Assembly (NCBI GenBank): GCA_918797485.1
Contig: CAKKNE010000006.1
Coordinates: forward strand, 2,542,001-2,606,000
Length of the DNA: 64,000 bases
Reading direction: 5' to 3'
Source of the DNA: Pelagomonas calceolata
Lineage: Eukaryota
Shown in pieces: positions 4,101-52,575 of this stretch. A model generated the notes under the pieces. The model saw only the letters and a list, made by a program, of their open reading frames with translations, ran no database searches and was not told the origin of the DNA. The stretch's first letter is position 1. Each line of letters begins with the position of its first letter. A program made the position numbers and the translations under genes.

Positions 4101-4759
4101 GTAAAAAAGCGGGGCCGTCACCTTGGGCCGAAAAGAAGGATACGTCTTCAGACAAACTGCGCGAGCGGTATCTGATCCAACTCCAGGCCTGGTGGCGGGG
4201 CCAGGGCTATCGAAGGAGGACCTTCCGGGAGAAGCGCGACCGGCGGGTCGTGAACGCTTTAGCTACGCTAGTCGCGGAGTTGGGGGGAGACGCGTCGGGC
4301 GTCGCCGCCGCGGCCTCGGGCCTGTCCGACGTCTTCTCGCAGCGCAAGAAGGCCGCGCCGCCGCCGCGGGTGCCGCCGTCGGCCGCGCGCGTCTCGCGCG
4401 CCACCTCCGCCGTGCGCTTCTCTTCTGATGAAGCGCCTCCATTATCACGGCCGCCGTCCGTCGCCTCGTCGCGGCGGCCGTCTGTTGAATCAGTGCCCGA
4501 GGCCGCGCCGCCGTCGCCGTCGCCGCGGCCCTCCGTCTCTGAGGTCGCCGACGAGCCGCCGGCGTCACAAGAGTCGAGCGCGCGCCCGACGCCGCGGCAG
4601 CAGCTCTTTGTCGCAGAAACGCCAGCCGTCGTCCAGGAGCGGTCCGCGAAGGTGCGCGCGGCCGAGGCGTCCGCGCAAGCGTCCGAGGAGCGGCGGCGGA
4701 ACGCGACGGGGGCGAAGCGGCTCGCCGACCCCTCCGCGACGGGGCCGCCGCGGCTCTAA
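1116..4759 (+). CDS. Large coiled-coil protein with IQ calmodulin-binding motifs (multi-exon)
   Basis: ORFs 996-2018, 1957-3027 and 3128-4759 join. Removing intron 2955-3057 puts ...RPMVA in frame with SLLKKAQE...MKPFM. A further intron probably ends at CACGCAG 2154, donor unresolved. IQ-like motifs VQAAYRGF, IQTAYR, LQAWWRG. Confidence 0.7.
2963..3057. mobile_element. Introner element forming GT-AG intron 2955-3057
   Basis: TIRs CCGCGTGGAAATCAA (2963-2977) and TTGATTTCCACGCAG (3043-3057); TSD GTCGCTAC (2955-2962) / GTCGCTGC (3058-3065); removal restores the frame. Confidence 0.9.
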
Positions 4760-6109: not shown

Positions 6110-7336
6110 TTAAACGCGGGCGGCCTCCGCCGCGGCGGCCTCGGGCGCCGGCGAGGCGTCGGCCGGCGCGGCCGGACAAGACGGGGGGAGCGACGCCGGC
6201 GGGGGGAGCGGCGCCGGCGGCGGGAGCGAAAGGATCTTCTCGCGGAGCTGGTAGGCCTGGAGGAAGAGCCTGGCCCGGTTCTGGCGCAGGTACTTGAGCA
6301 GGTCCTCGATCTTCCGCTTCAGCCGGGGGATCTCGCCCTTGGTGAGATTGGTCTGCGCGAGGAGCTTCGGCAGCTTGATGATGAGGCGGACGAGGTGCTC
6401 GGCGCCTGTGTGGAAAGTAAAACCAGTGAGTCGGGTGCACCCGACAATTCTTCACTAAGTCATTTCTCGGCGATGACGCGACCGTCCTGGCTCCGTCGAG
6501 CGGTGAGGAACCGGCATCGCCACGCCATCGAGCAGGCGTCGCGTCGATGGCGTGGAGGACGACGCGATGATTCAGCACGATCGCGCCGTAAAATTTTGAT
6601 TTCCACACAGCTCGGCGCCGTAGAGGCGGCTCGGCGCGCCGCGGCCGCGCGCGCGGAGGTCGTACTGCTGGCGCTCCTGGCGGTAGAGGAGCAGGCGCGG
6701 CAGCGCGGCGTCGAAGTAGCTGATCAGGGCGCCGGCGAAGTCGCGCCACGCCTGGCCGTGGGCGCCGCCCTGGCGCTTCGTCGCGGCGTAGGTCTGGAGC
6801 AGGTCGGCGACGCACGGCTTCCGGGGCAGCGGCGCCCAGTGGATCGGCTTCCCGACGATCTGCTCCCAGTCGTGCGCGACGACGAGCCGGATGTCGCGCG
6901 ACAGCGGCGGCAGCTTGAGCTGGTCGTCGCCGCCGTCGGCGGCGACGCCGTCGGCGGCTCCCGTCTCGAGCGCGGCGCGCGCCGACGTGCCGGGCGGGGG
7001 GGCGCCCTCCTCGGCCGCGGCCGCGGCCGCGGCCGCGCGCCGGCCCTCTTTCGTCCGGCGGTCCAGCTTCTTCGCCGGCTTCTTCGCCAGCTTCCTCGCC
7101 GCCGGCTTCTTCGGCTTCGCGGCGGCGGCTTTCTTCCGGCGCGGCGGCGGCGGCGGCGCGGGATCGACCACAAGCGCCGGCGCCGGAGGCGGCGGCGCCG
7201 CCGCCGGCTTCGACGGTGCAGGCACGGGCGGCGCCGCGCGCGGCTGCATGCCTGCTGCAGGCACGGGCGGCGGCGGCGCGCGCGGAGGTGCTGCAGATGC
7301 ATCTTGAATCGCCCATGGATAGGGGCCGTGATCCAT
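6110..7336 (-). CDS. MRG-domain chromatin protein (MRG15/Eaf3-like) with one introner intron
   Basis: After splicing 6406-6618 (GC-AG, 213 nt): ...YFDAALPRLLLYRQERQQY...PSRLYGAEHLVRLIIKLPKLL..., the MRG-domain signature; stop TAA at 6110-6112. Confidence 0.85.
6406..6610. mobile_element. Introner element (205 bp), best-preserved copy; GC-AG intron on - strand
   Basis: TIRs CTGTGTGGAAA / TTTCCACACAG; perfect TSD CTCGGCGC at 6398-6405 and 6611-6618. Confidence 0.95.
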
Positions 7337-10060: not shown

Positions 10061-10248
10061 AGTTGTGTCTAGTGCGTGGGCAGCCTTAAAATGGCTGTCG
10101 ACGTAGAAACCCGCGAGCTCAGGAGGCCCGGGGCTCGATCGTGGGCAGCCTTAAGCGAGCTTGTTGCCTAGCCTAGCATCAGATTCTGGCGGCGCTAGTA
10201 TCTTACTACGCTAGCTGGGTTACAGGGCTGGCTCAGTGCAGCGCTGCC

Positions 10249-11046
10249 ATGCGAGCCCTCGCATCTTTCCTCGCCCTGCGCTGCGCCGCGCCGCCGCGCA
10301 GGGTGCTCCTGCGAGCGCTGACGAGTGACGGCGAGAACGTGCACGCGGCCTGGACGAAGGAGGACGACTGGAAGCTCTGGCAGCATCGCGACGACGCTGA
10401 CGTCGCGGAGCTCCTGGGCCGCAAGGCCGGTGGCGTCGCGGCGCGGCTGAAAAAGCTCGAGGACCCGGCGTCGACGGCGGCGAAGCGGCTCTTCGGGGAA
10501 GTGGAGGCGGAGGAGACGATCGACATGGAAGACTACCTCGCGCTGGACGACGACGCGCTGCTGCGCCAGTGCCGAATTGATTACAGGCGAGACTCCGGGC
10601 CCGGCGGCCAGAAACGCAATAAAGTGGAGTCCGCCGTGCGGCTGACGCACACGACGAGCGGCGTCGTGGCGAACGCCATGGAAGACCGGTCGCAGCACGT
10701 CAACAAGCGCCGGGCGCTGCGGCGGCTGCGGACGAACATCGCACATAATGTAAGGAGGCCCGTCGATCTGGATGAGCCCTTCGATAATGATGATGCGTGC
10801 GCGGGCCTGCTGCCGTGGACGTCCGCTCAAAGAATAGGCGCAAAGAGCGCGCTGCGGCCGAGAGCCGAGCAGGCGCTGCTCGACGTCCTCGAGGCTTGTA
10901 ACGGTTCGATCGGCGACGCCGCTACTTATCTGGGCGGCTCGACGGGGCAGCTGTCGAAAGTCCTTACAAAAGACACGCGTCTCAAGGACGCGGCGAACGC
11001 GATCAGAAGAAACTTCGACCTCGGGCCGCTACGCTCACGAAAATAA
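10249..11046 (+). CDS. Class I peptide release factor (RF-1/GGQ) domain protein, probably organellar
   Basis: SGPGGQKRNKVESAVRLTH...EDRSQHVNKRRALRRLR; transit-like N-terminus. Confidence 0.85.
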   Translation: MRALASFLALRCAAPPRRVLLRALTSDGENVHAAWTKEDDWKLWQHRDDADVAELLGRKAGGVAARLKKLEDPASTAAKRLFGEVEAEETIDMEDYLALDDDALLRQCRIDYRRDSGPGGQKRNKVESAVRLTHTTSGVVANAMEDRSQHVNKRRALRRLRTNIAHNVRRPVDLDEPFDNDDACAGLLPWTSAQRIGAKSALRPRAEQALLDVLEACNGSIGDAATYLGGSTGQLSKVLTKDTRLKDAANAIRRNFDLGPLRSRK

Positions 11047-15644: not shown

Positions 15645-18600
15645 TTAGACTATCCGCGGAAGCCCCACATCAGTCACCGGCGGCACCCTTAACCCGCGCG
15701 CCGGCGCGCGCTCGGCCGTCAGCACGTCGGCCGTCGGCGGCGGCTCGGGCGCCCGCGCCTGGAGCGAGAAGACGTCCTGCTTCGCATTCAAGTAGGTCGC
15801 GAGCGTCCGGTCCACGGTCTGCACGACGTCCTCGTCTGAAACGAGTTCATCGTCAAAGTCGCCGTCCACAATACGTGTCGCCGGCGACCGCGCTGCGATG
15901 CGGGGCCGCAGCGGCGCCCGCGGCCGCGGCAATAAATCCTGGGCCTCGCGTCTCGCTCTCTCTCGGGAATCGGGCTCGAGGGCCCAGACCTGATCATGTA
16001 AAGGAGGCAACCCGCGCTCGTTCCGTCTAGCTTTCTCCGCGGCCCGCTTCGCCAGCTTGCCGACGGACGGCCTTAATGGATTCATCATCGCGCGGTCGCC
16101 GGACAGCGCGAGGGCCAGCTTCGCCCTAGCTTTCTCCAACGACCGCCGCTTCCGCCGCGCCGGCTCCTCTATTGCTTTCTTCTGGTCGGCGAGCTTCTTC
16201 TTGCGTAATCTTTCAGCCTTCTCGGCCTTCTGGGCGGCCGCCTCGGCCTCGGCCTTCTCCAACGCCCGTTTCTTCAGCTGCCGTCTTTTATCCCTTTTTT
16301 CAGTCGCCTTGGCCGCGAGCCGCGCGGCCCGCGCTGCTCGTTTGAGGGCTTTCAAACCCTTCTTGTCCTCCTCGCCCTTCACGGTGGCCGCCGCGAGAGC
16401 CGCGCGTCTACGAGTCACCTCCAACTGTAAAGCGTTCGTCGACTCGGGGTCGTCGTCGGCCGACGGATCACTATCACTCCCAGAGTCGCCGCCCACCCGC
16501 GCCGTGTGTCTCCCGTCCTCCTCATCCGAGTCTGATGAAGGCGGCCTTAACACGGACGCGAGGCCGCTCAGCTTCGACTTCTGTAATTTCGCCACAACTT
16601 TCTCGGCGGCCTTCTGCTCCTTCTTCTCCTTACTTTCCAGGGCTTTCTGCTTCGCGGCCTGCCACTTGGCCCGGGTCATTTTTTTACCCTTGGGCTTCTT
16701 CGCGGCCCTCTTGACCACTGGCTTGGGCTTCGGCTCGACCGGCTTCTCGGAGGCGTTCGACGCGTCGGACTGGGCGCCCGGGTCGACGTCGCTCGGTAAG
16801 AATTCATTTAAACCGTCCTCGTCGTCCTCGTCGACGGGCAGTGGTGGAGGCGCGTCCTCGTCGTCTGAGAGCGTCGGGACGACCTTGGGCGTTCCTAATG
16901 ATGAGATGCCGCGCTTCTGCACCCGCAACACCTGCGTGGCAAGCACCCGTGAGTTGCGGAGACCTTCGTCGACCTCCACGCCATTCAGCAGACGCAGTAA
17001 TGGAAACATCGTCGCGTCGATGGCGTGGAGCCTCCACGCCATCGAGCAGACGCAGTTACGTGGACAATATCGCGTCGATGGCGTGAGACGCCCGAAATTT
17101 GATTTCCACGCGGCGTCACACGGCCCGCAGCTCCAGCTCCGCCCGCGACCGCACGGCGGCCGACCGGAGACTTCGGGATAGACCTATGTGCTTGTCCGCG
17201 CGCTTGTCCCGCCGAGCTTGCGCCTTCACGGCACTCCGGGCCGCCTCCGTCTCCAAGACGCCATAATCTAGCAGAGGCGCGCCGAAGGACTCGAAGAGCC
17301 GCGGCTGCACCAAGAACCCGGCCGCGGCGCCGGACCGCGCGGCGCCCTCCTCGGCGTCGTACATGCCACTCCCGTCCAAGTTACAGTAATGATACAACGC
17401 GACCATCAATTGACTCCCAACTAACTGCAGGTCTTCGACCGTGTAGTGGCCGTCCCGCATCCACGATTCCACACATTTATTTCTCAGCTCGACCTCGTCT
17501 CTCGGAACACTGGGCGCCCTTGCTCTATCCTCGACAGCTGCCATGGCTTGTTTTCTAGCGTCTTGTAGGTTTATACCGCTCTTCCTGAAGGCTTCGGCCA
17601 ACCTCTCAGTAACATCGGGCACGGGAGAAGAAGGGTCACTTCTACCTTGATAGCTATCCAGAGGCTCCGTGTCGAGCGACAGAGGTATGTCCGTCAAGTC
17701 CACACTGCGACCATCATTCAATCTACGATCGGCAGCCGCTAAGAGTTGCTGCTCTTCATTATACCCAGGAGAACAGAAGGAGGCTTCCAGTGTAAAGGAA
17801 TTGGCAATGCCAAGTTCCCGCCACGCGACGACCCGACCAGTAGCCTTCTTCGCCGCTTGGACACTAAACGAATTGTCCCTAAATGAATACAACGCACCGC
17901 CAGAAGCCCCAGAACAGGGCGCGGCGCCCGCGGCCCAGGCGCTTCGAGCTCTCTTGCGAGCCGCGCGTCGCTCTGATCTTCTTTCACTCGCCGTCAGGCC
18001 ATCATCGGAGTCATCCGACGACGACGCACAGTCATAGACGGGCCCGCCGTCGCACATTCCATTTAAATTGTTGGCGATGCGAGGGAGCACTCGAGCCAGT
18101 ACCTTGTGGTCATCGGAAAAAGTCCCGTCGCAATGCCCCGCCTCGGCCAAGGGTGGCGGTTCGCCTTCGCCCGACGCGGCCCGCTGCAACGCCTCCGTCA
18201 ACTCTCGGGGCGGTGGTGGTGCCATCTTGGGCTCGGAACAGCCGTAGAAAAAGACGTTCTTCTTTCGCGAGTGGCCGTGCATGTCGCAATAAAACAGGAC
18301 GCCTCGCGTCTCGTGCGTCGTTTTCAACAATTGCTTGATGGCGTAGACTGTGGGCTGCAGTGTGGGAGATGGGGACGCGTACCTCCGATTCAGGTCTTCT
18401 CCGGCCAATGAGCTGCGGTAGTTGCCGTTGATCACACCATCAGGATTTAACATCGGCACGACCTTGAAGACGAAGTGGTCCCGCAGCTTGATCGCGCGCG
18501 GATCTTGCGAGCAGAGGAACTCGATGCAGCCGCGCATCATAAATGATGCATTAGACTCGCCCGGGTGCACGCGCGCCGTCAACACGACGCCCGCCCGCTT

Positions 18601-33380: not shown

Positions 33381-33914
33381 CCTTTCGGCGTCCTTCTTGA
33401 TATTAGTGGCGCGTCGATGGCGTGGGGATCCGTCGGCGGCGTCGGGCTGGCCGGGTGCAGCTGCCACAGTAGAGCTCACCACGGCAGGGCGTCGGGGGCC
33501 TGGGGCAGCCCCGGAAGCGACCGTTTCCTGCGCTCGTGCTGGTGGAGAGCTCGCCCGGCCCTGTGGGATCCCGCTCCCGGCGCTCCGCGGCCGACACGAG
33601 CTGCAGCGCCGGAGCTTGTGTTGAGAGAGAGCCCCGCACTTTGCCAAGTTTTGAAGCGTGAATCCTCCATGGATTTCTGAGACGAGCGAGAGGCGTCGCC
33701 GGCGCGGGGCAGTTCCTCTCCTTCGCCGCGGCCAATCAGATTTACCTGTGGCAAACCAGGCCTGGCAAGGCCACCAGGAATTGGAGCTTAAAACTACACG
33801 AACAGGTGCGCACACGCAGCCCGCGCAAGTCAGCGCAACGCCACCGAGCTCCGCGCACCACGCGCCGCCTCTGGGGCAGCCGCGCACCGCCGCGCAGGCC
33901 CACAAACAATGGTT

Positions 33915-34807
33915 ATGATCGCACCAAGCTCCTTTATCGGCTTCGGCGACCTCACGACGGACCGCAAGGCCGACGCGGTCCCGGCCAACTGGCGCGACGG
34001 CATCCCGAGCGGCGACGAGCGGTTGAGAGGAGGCCCCTTCCACCGTGACCCGCGGCCGCGCTCGTACACCGCGCCGCGGCCCGACTTCACTCCATCTCAA
34101 CAGATCAAGGGCGGGCCGCCGGCCTACGCGCACCTCATGGGCAATCCTTGTGAGTGGAGTCTGATGAGTTGCGACCGCGGGCCGTCGCAAGCCTCGAAGG
34201 GCTTCCGGTCCCCGGTCGGGTGGCAGCGCGGCCTTCATCCCGATCTAGCGGACAAGCTCTACGACGCGTCTCTGTCGAACAATCAAGCCGTCTACGAGCG
34301 CTTCGCGAAGAACGTCCGCTATTTATTCAAGGACGGCGCCCCGCAGTGTACCGCTCTGGTCTAAGGGGAGGACTCGCGGCTTTAGCCCGCGCGGTGGGGG
34401 TTCGATTCCCTCGGGCGGTTGATGGGGCGCCGCGCGCAGGTTTGTTGGCGACGACACGCGTCGGATCGCGCCACCACGACCGCCTCGTCAAGGGCTCGTC
34501 GCTCCCGGAGCCGCGAGACGTCGTCTCCAAGACGGGTGTCAGCATCGGCGTCATGGTGGGCTATGATTCTGGAGAGCCTCTGTTCGACGATTCGACGTCT
34601 CAACTAGTCGAGCCGCCCTTCGGCGACAAGCACGGCAAGTCCCTCGCGCGCGTCGAGCGGGGCGCGGGCGACGGCCTCGTCGTCTACGTCTGCCTCGACC
34701 CCGCCCATGGGACGCACCGCCTCTACGCGTGGCTCCGCCAGCGGTACTCCGCGCGCCAGCAGGCGGCGATCTTCGGCCGGCTCGTCGACGCGGACCTCCT
34801 CGCCTAA
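33915..34807 (+). CDS. Hypothetical protein split into two reading frames around a tRNA-like element; splice sites unresolved
   Basis: Coding-like ORF from 33915 stops at the TAA inside the tRNA D-arm (34362-34364); a coding-like frame resumes downstream to 34807. Candidate introns 34150-34439 or 34314-34492 restore the frame. Confidence 0.5.
34350..34420 (+). tRNA. tRNA or tRNA-like gene with anticodon UUA (ochre suppressor type), tRNA-Glu-like body
   Basis: Acceptor ACCGCTC/GGGCGGT; D-stem GTCT/GGAC; anticodon stem CGCGG/CCGCG with loop CT-TTA-GC; variable CGGT; T-arm GGGGG-TTCGATT-CCCTC; A-box TGGTCTAAGGG and B-box GGTTCGATTCC. Confidence 0.8.
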
Positions 34808-34833
34808 GGGTCATTTAGCACATCTTAGTCGTT

Positions 34834-35498
34834 CTAGTCGCCGCGCTTGCGTTTGGCGGCGGGCTGTTCGAGGGACGCGGAGAAGAGCGCCTCCTCGACG
34901 GCGCGCGGCGTCCACAAGCCCCCGAGCTTCTTCGCTTTCGCCGAGCAGGCCTCCAGCAGCCTCTGATAAGAATCGAGGTCGTACTTCTTCGAGTGCTCCG
35001 GCTCGCCGAGGACCGCTTCTAGAGCTTCATCACTCATAACGGGGAGGCGGTCGTCGACGGCCGCGAGGCAGACCGACGCCGTCGCCACCCCAATTCCCGT
35101 CAGCGCCGTGAGCGCGTCGCAGGCTTTTCTCGCGTCGGGGATCGCGGCGATGGCGGCCTTGCTCGCTTTGCGCACCTCGTTGTCATGCATAGCTTCGGCG
35201 AAGCGCATGAGCGGCCGCATCTTGCCGCGCGTCAGCTTGTAGCCGACGACCTGTACTAGATCTTCCTTGCTGAGCTCGGACTGGCCTTGTAAATTGGTCC
35301 ACTTCTTGTGCAGGGCCTGCGTGGTGCGTGCGTTTCTTGGCGGCGGCGGCGCGACGGAAAGTTTTTGCCGCGCTGCAATTTTGCCTTCAGGCTCCCATAC
35401 TTCGTCGTCTTGCCGCTGGCCCTCATGCGCTGCTCGATCGCGTCGAGATGGCTTTCCCACACGGCTTCGTCCTCGCTTGCCCACAATGTGGCGGCCAT
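34834..35498 (-). CDS. Conserved uncharacterised helix-hairpin-helix-like protein, one GC-AG intron (35317-35384)
   Basis: Spliced product ...KYGSLK|ALHKKW...LSKEDLVQVVGYKLTRGKMRP...LTALTGIGVATAS...PVMSDE. Confidence 0.75.
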
Positions 35499-40470: not shown

Positions 40471-41871
40471 TTACTCCCCCGCGCCCAGCGCGAGGCCCTC
40501 GAGCGCCTTCGCCGCGTCCGCGACGGCCGCCGCCACGTTGTTCACGGCCGCGCACTTCCCTTGCGCCCGGCCGCCCTTGCCGCCGCCTCGGCCTTCTAGC
40601 GCTGATAAAATAGACCCCTTGGCCGCCTCGACGAGCGCCGGCGTCGCCGACGAGATCAAGAACGCCCCGTCATTTTTTGAACCGAACGTCTGCACGAGGA
40701 CGGCGTCCGGCCGCCTTTGGTCAAAGGCGCCCGCGAGGATCTTCCCGATCTCGCCCATGTCCCTTGTAGAATCCCGCTTCGGCGCGGCGACGACGCGCCC
40801 GGGCATTGACGCGAGCTTGTCCGCCAGCAAGTCCACGACCTCCTTCTGGAGCCGCTTTTCCCGCTGCAAGGCCTCCTTGGACTTGTCCACGACGTCCCGC
40901 ACGCGATCGGGCACGGTCTCGGCGGCGGTGCACAGCGTCTCGACGCACTGCCGCTCTCTTTCAATACACGCGCCGAGTCGCTCGAGCAGGCGCGGGCCCG
41001 CCACGAAGTAGACTAGCGTGTTTCCGCCGCGCTTCGCCTCCGTCCGTATTACTTTAAACGCCTGGAGGTGGGCCAGATTCCTCACGTGCGTGCCGCAGCA
41101 GGGGTTCACGTCGACATCATTTGAAATGCGAACGAGGCGCACGGGCCCCGTCACGCTCGCTGGTAATGAACAAGACGACGCGCGCAGGCCCGGCACTTTA
41201 CAGTCCTTGACGTCGCTCGCCGAATGCCACTCCGTCTCTACTTGTATATCGTCTCTGATCAGGGCATTGACGCGGTCCTCGAGCTCCGGGACGTGAGCTG
41301 GGGTGAAGGGGCTGCCCAATTCCACGGTCGCGTCGGTCTCGCCCAGGTGCCAGGATAAAGTAGGCGCGCCGAGCCAGTCCTCGCAGACGGCCGACGCGAC
41401 GTGCTGCGCCGTGTGCTGCGTGGCGTGGGCCCACCTCCTCTCCCAGTCGAGTGCGACGTCTACTTCGTCGCCGACGGCGACTGGCTTTGATACACGGTGC
41501 ACGGCGACGCCGTCGTCGTTCGTCACTTGCGTGACCGCGGCGTCTCCAATGACGCCGAGGTCGAAGGGCTGGCCGCCGCCCTCCGGGAACAGCACCGTGT
41601 CGCTCAGGACGACGTCGTACGCGTCCTTGGGTTTCGATTTGGATTTTTTTTTGGAGGGTGGGGGTTGGACCTTCTCGCATCGCAGGACTGTGGCTTTGCA
41701 ACTCTTCGCGTAGGTGTCCTTCTGGCACATTAATTCTCCGCATCTCACACAGCTCATTTTCCAGTCGTTCGACGCGACGGCGGCTGCCATGGTGCTGTGA
41801 GTCGCTGGCCGTCGTTGAGTCCGCACGAATGCGGCGGCCTGTGTTGCACAGATGAGCCAATTTACGCGCAT
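40471..41871 (-). CDS. Alanyl-tRNA editing protein (AlaX/AARSD1 family)
   Basis: DTVLFPEGGGQP, QHTAQH, NPCCGTH, C-terminal GRGGGKG. Confidence 0.9.
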   Translation of the reverse strand: MRVNWLICATQAAAFVRTQRRPATHSTMAAAVASNDWKMSCVRCGELMCQKDTYAKSCKATVLRCEKVQPPPSKKKSKSKPKDAYDVVLSDTVLFPEGGGQPFDLGVIGDAAVTQVTNDDGVAVHRVSKPVAVGDEVDVALDWERRWAHATQHTAQHVASAVCEDWLGAPTLSWHLGETDATVELGSPFTPAHVPELEDRVNALIRDDIQVETEWHSASDVKDCKVPGLRASSCSLPASVTGPVRLVRISNDVDVNPCCGTHVRNLAHLQAFKVIRTEAKRGGNTLVYFVAGPRLLERLGACIERERQCVETLCTAAETVPDRVRDVVDKSKEALQREKRLQKEVVDLLADKLASMPGRVVAAPKRDSTRDMGEIGKILAGAFDQRRPDAVLVQTFGSKNDGAFLISSATPALVEAAKGSILSALEGRGGGKGGRAQGKCAAVNNVAAAVADAAKALEGLALGAGE

Positions 41872-42149
41872 CTGCGCGTGATTCCACTTTCTATAATCCT
41901 CTAGCGTAGTAAGACACTAGCATTACGGCCTCGAGAGCTTAAGCTCGCAGTACGAAGTCACACTGCACCCAAATTGGCCAAACACTGCTCCACAATACTC
42001 TCCACAATACGGTGGCCGCTGCGCGGCTGTGCAATCCATCGCTGCGGCTGCAAGCACGGCACCACTGGTACAGTGCCGCGGCAGTGCGCGACAGCGCGAC
42101 GTAGCGAGCAATATATTTTCAAAAGCAGAACGCCATCGACTAGACAGCA

Positions 42150-46982: not shown

Positions 46983-47625
46983 CCAAATGGTCCATCATAT
47001 CAACTCCAGCCCAGTTTTCATACACAATCGACGGAACCGGAGCCGACGGCCCGCGCTCGGAGGGCGGGAAAAGAATTCTACTAGACAACTCCCGAGTTTA
47101 TGTTCGTTTCCTTCCGTTTGTTGGGGGTAGAGTCCATCCATATCGATTGAACACGTACTCATCTATTTTAGGTGCTCCGTTAGAGCCGCGCGAAACGTCG
47201 AATCCGCGACCCCACGTTTAGACGTAGCCGGTCTCAGATCCTAACCCTGCGAGTATCAGCGACGCCACTACCCAAATGGACCACAACGCCGTTGTTCTAT
47301 TCACAATCGACCGACTTGCCCGTTCTCCGCGGACGACGGTGCGGAGACGGAGCACCAGAATGGCCCCAGACCAGTGGTTTATAAAATAAATTTGCTTTTC
47401 AGGCGCTTCGGTTGTGGGACGGGCCAGAAAACCGGCCTGAGCAAGTACTACATTTGATTACTGTTCCCCAATCCTCCGCGCGGATCTTCGGTCTCGGGAC
47501 CCCACGATCTTGCTTAGACGGCGCTTCTACCCAGACCTGCGACCATCAGCCCGTGTACCATCACCATGGACCATAACGCGATCATTTGTTTCATGAACGA
47601 CGGACTTACGCGAGGTCCAGATCAA
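46983..47625. repeat. Degenerate tandem repeat, period about 290 bp, a little over two units
   Basis: ATGGWCCA at about 46987, 47276 and 47566; GACCCCACG at 47208 and 47498; CCTGCGA..ATCAGC at 47246 and 47536. Confidence 0.7.
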
Positions 47626-48473
47626 GATGTTCACGTCCCGAGCGTGGGCAATCCAAAGTACCCTTCTCGTGGTGTAGATGTCATATACTTGTAATTGACT
47701 ATCGCTGGGGTAGTATGGGGTCCAACGAGACCGCTACGGCGACTACTGGGGGCCCTCGGGTACTTGCCGTATTTGACGGGAACGGGGCGCCATCGGGTCC
47801 AAATTGCCCACTTTTTTCGGGGGCAGATCGGCTCTCGGGCGCCCTCTGGGATAGGTCTGGGGTCAGGTAGTCGCCGACACCGCATGCGTCGATTCTTGGG
47901 GCTCTCCAGAGAGCTCTGGATCCAAAACTTTGGGGGCTTGGGCTCCGGCCCGATGTCTGGCTGAGGACCTGTACTGATATGTATCTACCGATGGAAGTGC
48001 CCACGCATGCGGCGTAGGCGATTGCACGTGTCTAATACCGACCTCAAAGCGACCCCAGGGAGACCTCCGGACTGCAAATCGACAGGATTCCATCGACGCG
48101 CCCGCCCTGGTGGCGTCGTCAATATCGCGAATTAAAAAAAATATTTTTTTTAGGCCCCGGTACGTGTCCCATTGATCTCTTTGGGCCAGTAGCGAACCAA
48201 ACGACACTCGAACGACTCCGTGGCGCAGCTCTTCGGATCCCCGACGCCGTCGACAGCTGCGCGCCCGACCACTCTACACGCAGAGCCAGCCGAGCACGTC
48301 AGCTCCGTCGGAGTGAGCGCCGCGCGGCGATGGCGTCCGCGAGGGGACTCCTACCCGCCGGCACGCCATCGCCGCGACGCTGGTACCTTGGAATCAAGGC
48401 GTCGACTCGACGCGGTCAAGATGGAGACAGACCTTTTCTTATTGTCTGGACAGGGAGGAATGAATGCACAGGC

Positions 48474-51537: not shown

Positions 51538-52254
51538 CTAGACCCCGTGCATCTTCCACTGGAAGTCGTCCGCGCCCAGCCCGCGCCCCTTCGGCTGCTT
51601 CCCGTCCAACATCACCTCGATCATCTTGTCGAGTATCTTTTTGATGACTTTGGAATCTTTCGTGCGCAGCCAGAGCTCGATGCGAAAGACCTGGTTCGAC
51701 CCCTTATTTCCAGACTTGTCGACGATGCGCGCGCCGCAGATCTCGTCCTTGTCCTCGATCGTATGTCCGACCAACCCCAGGACGATGTTCTGCCACCAGT
51801 CGTCGATCATCGGCGAGTCCCTTCCATCTCTACTACTTTTCCGCAGATTCCACTCGCCTCCACTCATGTTCGCCGAATCCTCCCATTCCGGCGAGATGCC
51901 GTCCTTAAAGAGCGAGAAGGACTCGATCTGGCGGTCGTCCGGCGGCTTGCCCACTCGCTTCCTAGCTTTCCCGTCGTAGAACACGGCACTCGGCGTCGGG
52001 ATATGCGCGTAATATTTCCAAAACTCCTCAACAGTATCAAAGGTAAAGAGCTTCCGCTGCAGCTCGCCCCACTCCTTCTTCGACATGGTCTTCTTCTCGG
52101 CGGCCTTGTGCTCCCAGAAGGTCCACTTGTGCTCGAGCGGGTGCGGGCCCGCGTCGGCGGCGGTCGCCGGCTCCGCGTTGGCCTCAGCTACCTCGCCGTC
52201 CTCCTTATCGGGCGGCGGCGGCGGCGCATCAGCCGCCTTGGCCTCCTCCGCCAT
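51538..52254 (-). CDS. eIF4E: Translation initiation factor eIF4E family
   Basis: HPLEHKWTFW, FDTVEEFW, SLFKDGISPEWED, GGEW, ICGARIVDK, RIELW. Confidence 0.93.
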   Translation of the reverse strand: MAEEAKAADAPPPPPDKEDGEVAEANAEPATAADAGPHPLEHKWTFWEHKAAEKKTMSKKEWGELQRKLFTFDTVEEFWKYYAHIPTPSAVFYDGKARKRVGKPPDDRQIESFSLFKDGISPEWEDSANMSGGEWNLRKSSRDGRDSPMIDDWWQNIVLGLVGHTIEDKDEICGARIVDKSGNKGSNQVFRIELWLRTKDSKVIKKILDKMIEVMLDGKQPKGRGLGADDFQWKMHGV

Positions 52255-52575
52255 AACTTTGGGGTGCGCCCGCTCGGCAGCCGCGCGCGCGGTCTCCCGC
52301 GCGTCCGGCGCCGCTGCGGACGCTGGTCGTCGCTGGCGCCTAGCTCTGGTGAGCTACGCGTCGGCGGCGACCGGAGCTGGACCTGCGCGCTGGCAGGTCC
52401 AAAGAGATCACTCAGGCACCCTTCCCTAGCTTGTGTTGCTAGGCGGGAAGGGGCCACACTGCCCACACAGGGCCGCAAAAGCGAATCGCGGACAAAGGGT
52501 GCGGGGGACGGGTTTTGCCGCGTTTTTTAAAGCCTCGAAAAATACGCCGTCGGCGCGAAACTCTCATAAATAAAC

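Follow-up and report, generated by a model that had tools for sequence, protein, structure and literature searches.

The window that we analysed is a 64-kb stretch of the Pelagomonas calceolata genome, in which a gene of two exons on the forward strand (33909..34335 and 34440..34807) is interrupted by a GC-AG spliceosomal intron of 104 nt (34336..34439, forward strand) that holds a tRNA gene with a stop-codon anticodon. Here, we describe this locus and its relatives, and discuss what such a tRNA might do.

An intronic tRNA gene with a UUA anticodon

The tRNA gene (copy A; 34350..34420, forward strand) is 71 nt long, and its anticodon, TTA (UUA in the RNA; 34382..34384, forward strand), is cognate to UAA and can read UAG by wobble. 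The cloverleaf with paired stems that had been recognized from the sequence is confirmed, with one additional G-U pair each in the D stem and the T stem, and the gene has an A1-U72 pair, U73, A15 together with U48, and a 4-nt variable loop. The Rfam tRNA model RF00005 aligns over its full length (model positions 1-71 of 71) with 51.4 bits (gathering threshold 29; E 3.2e-9) and no non-standard pairs marked, and ARAGORN labels the gene tRNA-Stop(tta), the sole tRNA of the window. Thermodynamic folding by itself gives no preference for the cloverleaf (z 0.21; 111 of 200 shuffled sequences are equally stable), and because the folding energy is uninformative, support for a tRNA comes from the covariance model and from comparison. 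A Leu reading by a one-base shift of the loop (to UAG, or UAA in the CUA-type copy described below) is rejected: as the sequence-only reading had stated, the shift breaks the stem, and it also places a C at position 37 in a tRNA that lacks a long variable arm. An assembly error, a concern also raised there, is countered by a DNA contig (X2) that crosses the stretch with 0 differences, though it is flagged as a possible source of the stretch itself, and by four orthologous contigs (L001, L009, L013 and L019) that have TTA too. All sampled words of the region are present in four DNA runs, each likewise flagged as a possible source. The tRNA is real, and not a lone oddity.

Within the intron, a leader of 14 nt (34336..34349, forward strand) separates the 5′ splice site from the tRNA, and a trailer of 19 nt (34421..34439, forward strand) separates the tRNA from the 3′ splice site. 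Leader and trailer can pair, in a duplex that does not exceed shuffled sequences in the window copy (0.136), and no run of four T occurs within 200 nt downstream. The junction is seen in one contig from a run that we guess to be RNA (X5), which skips 104 nt with a cut movable by 2, and is placed by frame conservation: setting the GC..AG ends at 34336-34439 restores the frame and joins the exons into 265 codons ending in TAA, for a product of 265 aa. Both exons are conserved in relatives, with 95 of the 121 residues of exon 2 kept in the most distant one, and neither exon matches a Pfam family above the cut-off. Raw poly(A) reads covering the host exons were not found in the roughly 6% of two runs that was examined. 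The earlier placement of the tRNA inside a protein-coding locus was therefore correct and can now be made precise, given the splice in X5 and the restored frame. A GT-AG intron at 34348-34439 was discarded in favour of the GC-AG junction, as was an open frame reading through the tRNA (34154-34807), since the upstream exon lies in a different frame and the RNA contig splices the tRNA region out.

Searches with patterns of the tRNA family returned no match in viral contigs or prokaryote genomes, a pattern combining the intron end and the T arm returned none in viral contigs, and the protein of the neighbouring gene has no relative in viral contigs or prokaryote genomes; the locus thus gives no sign of a viral or bacterial origin. 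The accessible part of a paper on recoding in giant viruses (PMC13524828) does not mention pelagophytes.

A family of four loci

Metagenome contigs were scanned with a pattern of the 5′ half of the tRNA in which the anticodon was left open. This resulted in 20 loci, of which 18 have TTA, one has CTA (contig L002) and one is cut before the anticodon, so that a sense anticodon occurs in 0 of the 19 informative copies. Variation of the anticodon is confined to position 34 (U or C), while U35-A36 is fixed, which reads as the pattern of an isoacceptor pair serving a split codon box. The relatives thus contain both a UUA and a CUA form, the latter on one contig; a UUA and CUA pair serves UAR codons in Blastocrithidia (PMC12153298). 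Flanking sequence groups the 20 contigs into four loci, A (five contigs), B (four), C (ten) and D (L002). The locus A contigs are orthologous to the window; two of them, L009 and L019, with 1 difference in 3023 bases, were counted as a single lineage.

At least four copies occur in a single DNA run (X4): the copy of the window, which differs from the core of L014 at 3 positions, a copy without differences, one that retains the 7-nt insert described below, and one that differs at 7 positions. For the CUA copy L002 the count against the same core is 8, and the 7-difference copy suggests that the cultured strain probably also has a CUA copy. ARAGORN labels L002 as tRNA-Pyl, a label that we reject: L002 has a 5-bp anticodon stem, a 4-nt variable loop and normal D and T loops, whereas tRNA-Pyl has a 6-bp anticodon stem, a 3-nt variable loop, a reduced D loop and no GG or TPsiC.

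All four loci are intronic or intron-like. The locus B tRNA lies immediately upstream of an open frame, the locus C tRNA lies one base past a TGA stop, and the motif CAG-G follows 18-54 nt past the tRNA end in every copy with enough flank. The GC-AG intron of locus C is spliced in 79, 47 and 14 raw reads and retained in about 24, 8 and 5 (three runs of one sample). Splicing is shown at loci A and C, and loci B and D appear intronic by their sequence.

In seven of the ten locus C contigs, a 7-nt insert begins one base past the 3′ end of the anticodon. The tRNA cores of these seven do not differ from one another, whereas identity across their flanks is about 79-93%. Pyrimidine 32 of a tRNA pairs with the third-last base of a tRNA intron, and the third-last base of this insert can indeed pair with C32. 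Canonical eukaryotic tRNA introns are 6-133 nt long and occupy the same site (PMC4090602), so that site, length and pairing of the insert are those of a canonical tRNA intron; the insert also looks like a duplicate of neighbouring bases made by slippage. It is retained in all of the 41 poly(A) reads, which are pre-mRNA. A Lys(ttt) label that ARAGORN gives to the insert-bearing copies presupposes an intron at a non-canonical site and was set aside, as removal at the canonical site yields TTA, as in the insert-free copies.

Several further features of loci B and C were observed. The bases preceding the locus B intron resemble the final codons of the locus C gene (L004:1525-1580 against L020:340-400), and locus B was probably copied from a piece of locus C. 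The leader of the locus C intron is 165 nt long in L008 (800-963), with the same type present in reads of the cultured strain, and 19-23 nt long in other contigs. In L018, L006 and L015, the stretch preceding locus C matches the window at 47302-48226, 13 kb from locus A. A short, high-copy repeat lies inside a 280-nt intron of the locus C gene (L014:564-615) and recurs in the window at about 17005-17092 and near 6520, 11900 and 58900; one of its variants is shared by 51 contigs of a DNA run, reads of it fall on both strands, and it is probably an introner or MITE.

Conservation of sequence and structure

Comparison of the tRNA with the 4-fold degenerate sites of the two flanking genes points to purifying selection. 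Between L001 and the window, 0 of 71 tRNA positions differ against 26 of 138 silent positions (p 1e-5), and for the most distant lineage, L009, the counts are 5 of 71 against 52 of 122 (p 4e-8). Structure is kept as well. In an alignment of the 10 distinct sequences among 21 (8 identical and 3 truncated ones were left out), 209 of 210 pair cells hold standard pairs. The anticodon-stem pair 29-41 (columns 28/47) occurs as C-G, U-G, U-A and G-C, and two anticodon-stem pairs are changed on both sides, both double changes coming from L002. The pairing score of the alignment is reached by 3 of 500 shuffles, and in slid controls the share of standard pairs drops to 38-61%, a control that is inflated by the relatedness of the sequences. 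Taken together, these comparisons indicate that the tRNA is under purifying selection with its structure kept. Orthologues in related pelagophytes had been named as a check, and the locus A relatives do keep UUA, with stem changes that preserve pairing.

The same data bear on the idea that the family is functionless, as a decayed tRNA, a SINE or cargo of an introner. The setting has something to offer this idea: P. calceolata has 956 putative introners with GT or GC donors and terminal inverted repeats (PMC9481584), about 14% of its introns are GC-AG (bioRxiv 2024.10.30.620910), and the family itself has GC or GT donors, AG acceptors and complementary ends. Locus B, moreover, seems to be copied from locus C, and two locus C copies (L006 and L018) are damaged, with a T-stem mismatch and T-loop changes. 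Nevertheless, many recent copies decaying neutrally are not what is found: there are four loci (only about four copies in the one DNA run), the tRNA changes far more slowly than silent sites and in ways that preserve pairing, and orthologous loci persist across lineages whose flanks match at 65-75%. For locus A, the comparison with silent sites already refutes functionless cargo to a large extent, and for the family as a whole we consider a lack of function very improbable.

Stop codons in the window and in a neighbouring gene

The genetic code of the window looks mostly standard, as had been concluded from TAA gene ends at 4759, 11046 and 40387, all of which are present. For 19 window genes, chosen for being clear or for having Pfam support, the terminal codon is TAA in 9, TAG in 7 and TGA in 3. 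Since UAA and UAG thus end 16 of the 19, a strong suppressor should be costly. A codon-usage scan of the 64-kb window found no in-frame TAA or TAG with coding-like sequence on both sides, and the same scan did detect a TAG in the relative lineage L009/L019. For a window protein with 49 Tyr residues, 115 shorter homologues were collected, of which 26 have a stretch of at least 60% identity; 0 of these 26 end before a Tyr, in what is a weak test, as in just 2 cases did the sequence end lie within three residues of the alignment. The frequent in-frame UAA and UAG in conserved genes that mark a reassigned code are therefore lacking: the window has none, and one relative lineage has one site.

This site lies in the gene that converges on the host gene (34834..35498, reverse strand) and ends in TAG. 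The protein of this neighbour falls into a 90% cluster with a named P. calceolata protein, which marks the organism as P. calceolata-like. The stops of the two genes are only 26 nt apart (window 34807-34836), and transcripts of the neighbour in the cultured strain end at 34818 and 34828, 6-16 nt past its stop, an observation on this one gene. The neighbour also has a short GC-AG intron at about 35316-35384 (reverse strand) that is absent in L009/L019. A Tyr codon of the gene, TAT in the window (34966..34968, reverse strand), is TAG in L009/L019 (L009:2163-2165, reverse strand). The Tyr is near-invariant and kept in distant homologues, and the TAG is followed by 43 conserved codons before the terminal TAG. 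This TAG is where four database proteins, found on 13 contigs of a single lineage, stop, and a further protein of that lineage (P0037) has the Tyr allele; between the two alleles, 0 of 130 upstream residues and 2 of 43 downstream residues changed (p 0.06). This pattern is expected if the TAG is simply a nonsense allele whose tail is relaxing; just as well, leaky suppression may allow the allele to be tolerated. Two TAG matches in L006, and most other stop matches, seem to come from antisense or wrong frames and were left out.

Could the organism hide a context-dependent code, in which internal UAG and UAA are sense codons (with Tyr at the one site seen), rare because the genome is GC-rich, while termination is limited to stops close to the poly(A) tail? 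The in-frame TAG just described is what such a code would produce, and in the 1931 codons aligned for the divergent lineage, which include some antisense frames, the Tyr columns hold 28 TAC and 1 TAG. The very short 3′ UTR of the neighbour is as in Condylostoma (21-23 nt; PMC4967479), and the CUA copy and L019 come from one metagenome. However, the site is single and polymorphic with signs of a relaxed tail, the window and the (weak) test of the Tyr-rich protein gave no second example, and neither C1-G72 nor A73, which determine Tyr identity in eukaryotes, is present in the tRNA. Furthermore, the MMETSP screen reports no new code in 265 non-ciliates (PMC4967479), with the qualification that two of its supplements do not carry the name Pelagomonas. 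We therefore hold a code of this kind to be improbable.

Isotype and acceptor end

The T loop of the family, its second to fourth acceptor pairs and the loop of the CUA copy are, as we take them, Glu-like, while its D arm and U73 are also compatible with Gln. The U11-A24 and U13-G22 pairs and the 4-nt variable loop, from which a Glu-type identity had been proposed, also occur in eukaryotic tRNA-Gln. These features are present as the sequence-only reading described them, but they do not establish Glu: the identity table of PMC9976931, in the part accessible to us, gives no eukaryotic Glu or Gln determinants. It does give C1-G72 and A73 for Tyr, which are absent here, and the A1-U72 pair and U73 or C73 of the family match none of its eukaryotic sets. 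The published probe for the Blastocrithidia tRNA-Glu(UUA) implies an anticodon loop similar to that of the family (PMC12153298). The tRNA pair is probably of Glu or Gln origin. Import into mitochondria does not fit, as the mtDNA of P. calceolata lacks only tRNA-Thr (PMC7936722).

Supplement 4 of PMC9481584 has, among the entries listed, at least two genes labelled glutaminyl-tRNA synthetase, one of which matches a bacterial sequence best and has an additional tRNA-binding domain, along with one eRF1, one TyrRS and one GluRS of bacterial type. The two GlnRS-labelled genes may be the ordinary cytosolic and organellar set, or a mislabelled GluRS.

An anticodon seen in the gene may also not be the anticodon that is used. 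Editing after transcription, for example of A36 to I or G, would turn the UUA/CUA pair into the Gln pair UUG/CUG, and the family would then be ordinary sense tRNAs. The UUA and CUA anticodons differ from the Gln or Glu pairs at position 36 only, U73 is typical of eukaryotic tRNA-Gln, and strong conservation would require no target stop codons. We know of no editing at tRNA position 36, and the anticodon is unchanged in pre-mRNA reads, which do not bear on the mature tRNA; altogether this explanation strikes us as distinctly improbable.

Proposed release and decoding role

In the reading that we prefer, and to which we give a probability of about one half, UUA and CUA tRNAs in introns of ordinary Pelagomonas genes are likely matured and charged, and would decode a minority of UAA and UAG codons as an amino acid (probably Glu or Gln), while termination at normal gene ends would continue. 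This reading takes in at least three UUA loci, plus the CUA sister locus in a relative. The tRNA would be released from the spliced Pol II intron by RNase P and RNase Z; we infer this route because 9 of 13 copies, the window copy included, have no four-T Pol III terminator within 200 nt, though Pol III may instead use the internal A and B boxes. At locus C, the 7-nt insert would be removed by the tRNA splicing endonuclease. Among poly(A) reads, which are pre-mRNA, no mature, CCA-ended or spliced tRNA was found. The charged suppressor would then compete with eRF1, with true stops presumably guarded by very short 3′ UTRs or proximity to poly(A), and premature or programmed stops read through. 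Suppression would be low-level or conditional.

What favours a suppressor pair is that U35-A36 is conserved with U or C at the wobble position, the look of a decoder of UAA and UAG. The main competitor is a tRNA-shaped RNA with a non-decoding job, such as an element of splicing or intron structure, a precursor from which RNase P and RNase Z cut a regulatory RNA, or a donor of amino acids to reactions away from the ribosome; its stop anticodon would exclude it from decoding. The intronic or intron-like position of all four loci speaks for this, as do leader-trailer pairing that exceeds shuffled sequences in 6 of 13 copies (0.05 or less), the atypical acceptor end, and the lack of target codons in the window scan and the test of the 49-Tyr protein; intronic tRNA-like RNAs with such roles have been reported (PMC7722341, PMC6152437). 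Yet a non-decoding RNA need not hold U35-A36 at every locus while only the wobble base varies, and the intact T and D loops and an insert at the canonical site point to the normal tRNA pathway. Nor is a stop anticodon enough to exclude a charged tRNA from the ribosome. We judge a non-decoding job to be unlikely. The sequence-only reading had left the choice between a natural suppressor and a non-decoding RNA open; the CUA sister L002 tips it towards decoding, and the multi-locus, intron-hosted family had escaped that reading.

A bolder version of the decoding role is a hidden second code, in which the intron-released UUA/CUA pair, with its unusual acceptor end, reads internal UAA and UAG in a few genes while poly(A)-proximal stops terminate, possibly with its own synthetase and possibly with a non-standard residue; this we think rather improbable.

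Comparison with known systems

Fully cognate tRNAs for UAA and UAG are known from genomes in which these codons are recoded. Blastocrithidia is similar to Pelagomonas in having a UUA and CUA pair in a eukaryote, a similar anticodon loop and UAA still serving as a stop (PMC12153298), but its genome is AT-rich and commonly uses UAR as sense codons, whereas Pelagomonas has about 65% GC, ends genes with UAA and UAG, and shows no internal use in the window; the stop-anticodon tRNA genes described here are, in addition, intronic and start with A1-U72. In Condylostoma and Parduczia, UAA- and UAG-cognate tRNA-Gln likewise coexist with termination and very short 3′ UTRs (PMC4967479), whereas no frequent internal UAR is seen here. 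Predicted suppressor tRNA genes of standard-code plants also have UUA and CUA anticodons, and their authors link them to readthrough; these genes are scattered and of many isotypes, unlike the one family at orthologous loci under selection in Pelagomonas (bioRxiv 2023.03.20.533458).

The hosting of the tRNA has its own parallels. Human nimtRNAs (PMC7722341) and Arabidopsis GUT15 (PMC6152437) also place a tRNA shape inside a Pol II intron, whereas in the Pelagomonas family the cloverleaf is complete and canonical, the stop anticodon is fixed, and a sister differs at the wobble base. Pelagophyte introner elements share a GC or GT donor, an AG acceptor and complementary ends (PMC9481584), whereas this family has about four copies that are old, conserved and tRNA-carrying.

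Searches of openly available full-text articles gave no prior report of these tRNA genes, and the word 'tRNA' is absent from the main text of two Pelagomonas genome papers (PMC9481584, bioRxiv 2024.10.30.620910). If the preferred reading is true, a conserved pair alongside gene ends in UAA and UAG would be a living ambiguous-intermediate state of code change or a dedicated natural suppression, and some Pelagomonas proteins would be mis-annotated. The host alga is culturable and globally abundant. Such a pair would allow tests of how termination is shielded from cognate tRNAs, which is at the same time a safety question for therapeutic suppressor tRNAs. The family further suggests that tRNAs can be released from spliceosomal introns. 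Finally, the window contains several other translation-related genes near the tRNA: a protein with an RF-1 domain (10177-11046, forward strand), an AlaX-like tRNA editing protein (40471-41916, reverse strand) and eIF4E (51538-52353, reverse strand).
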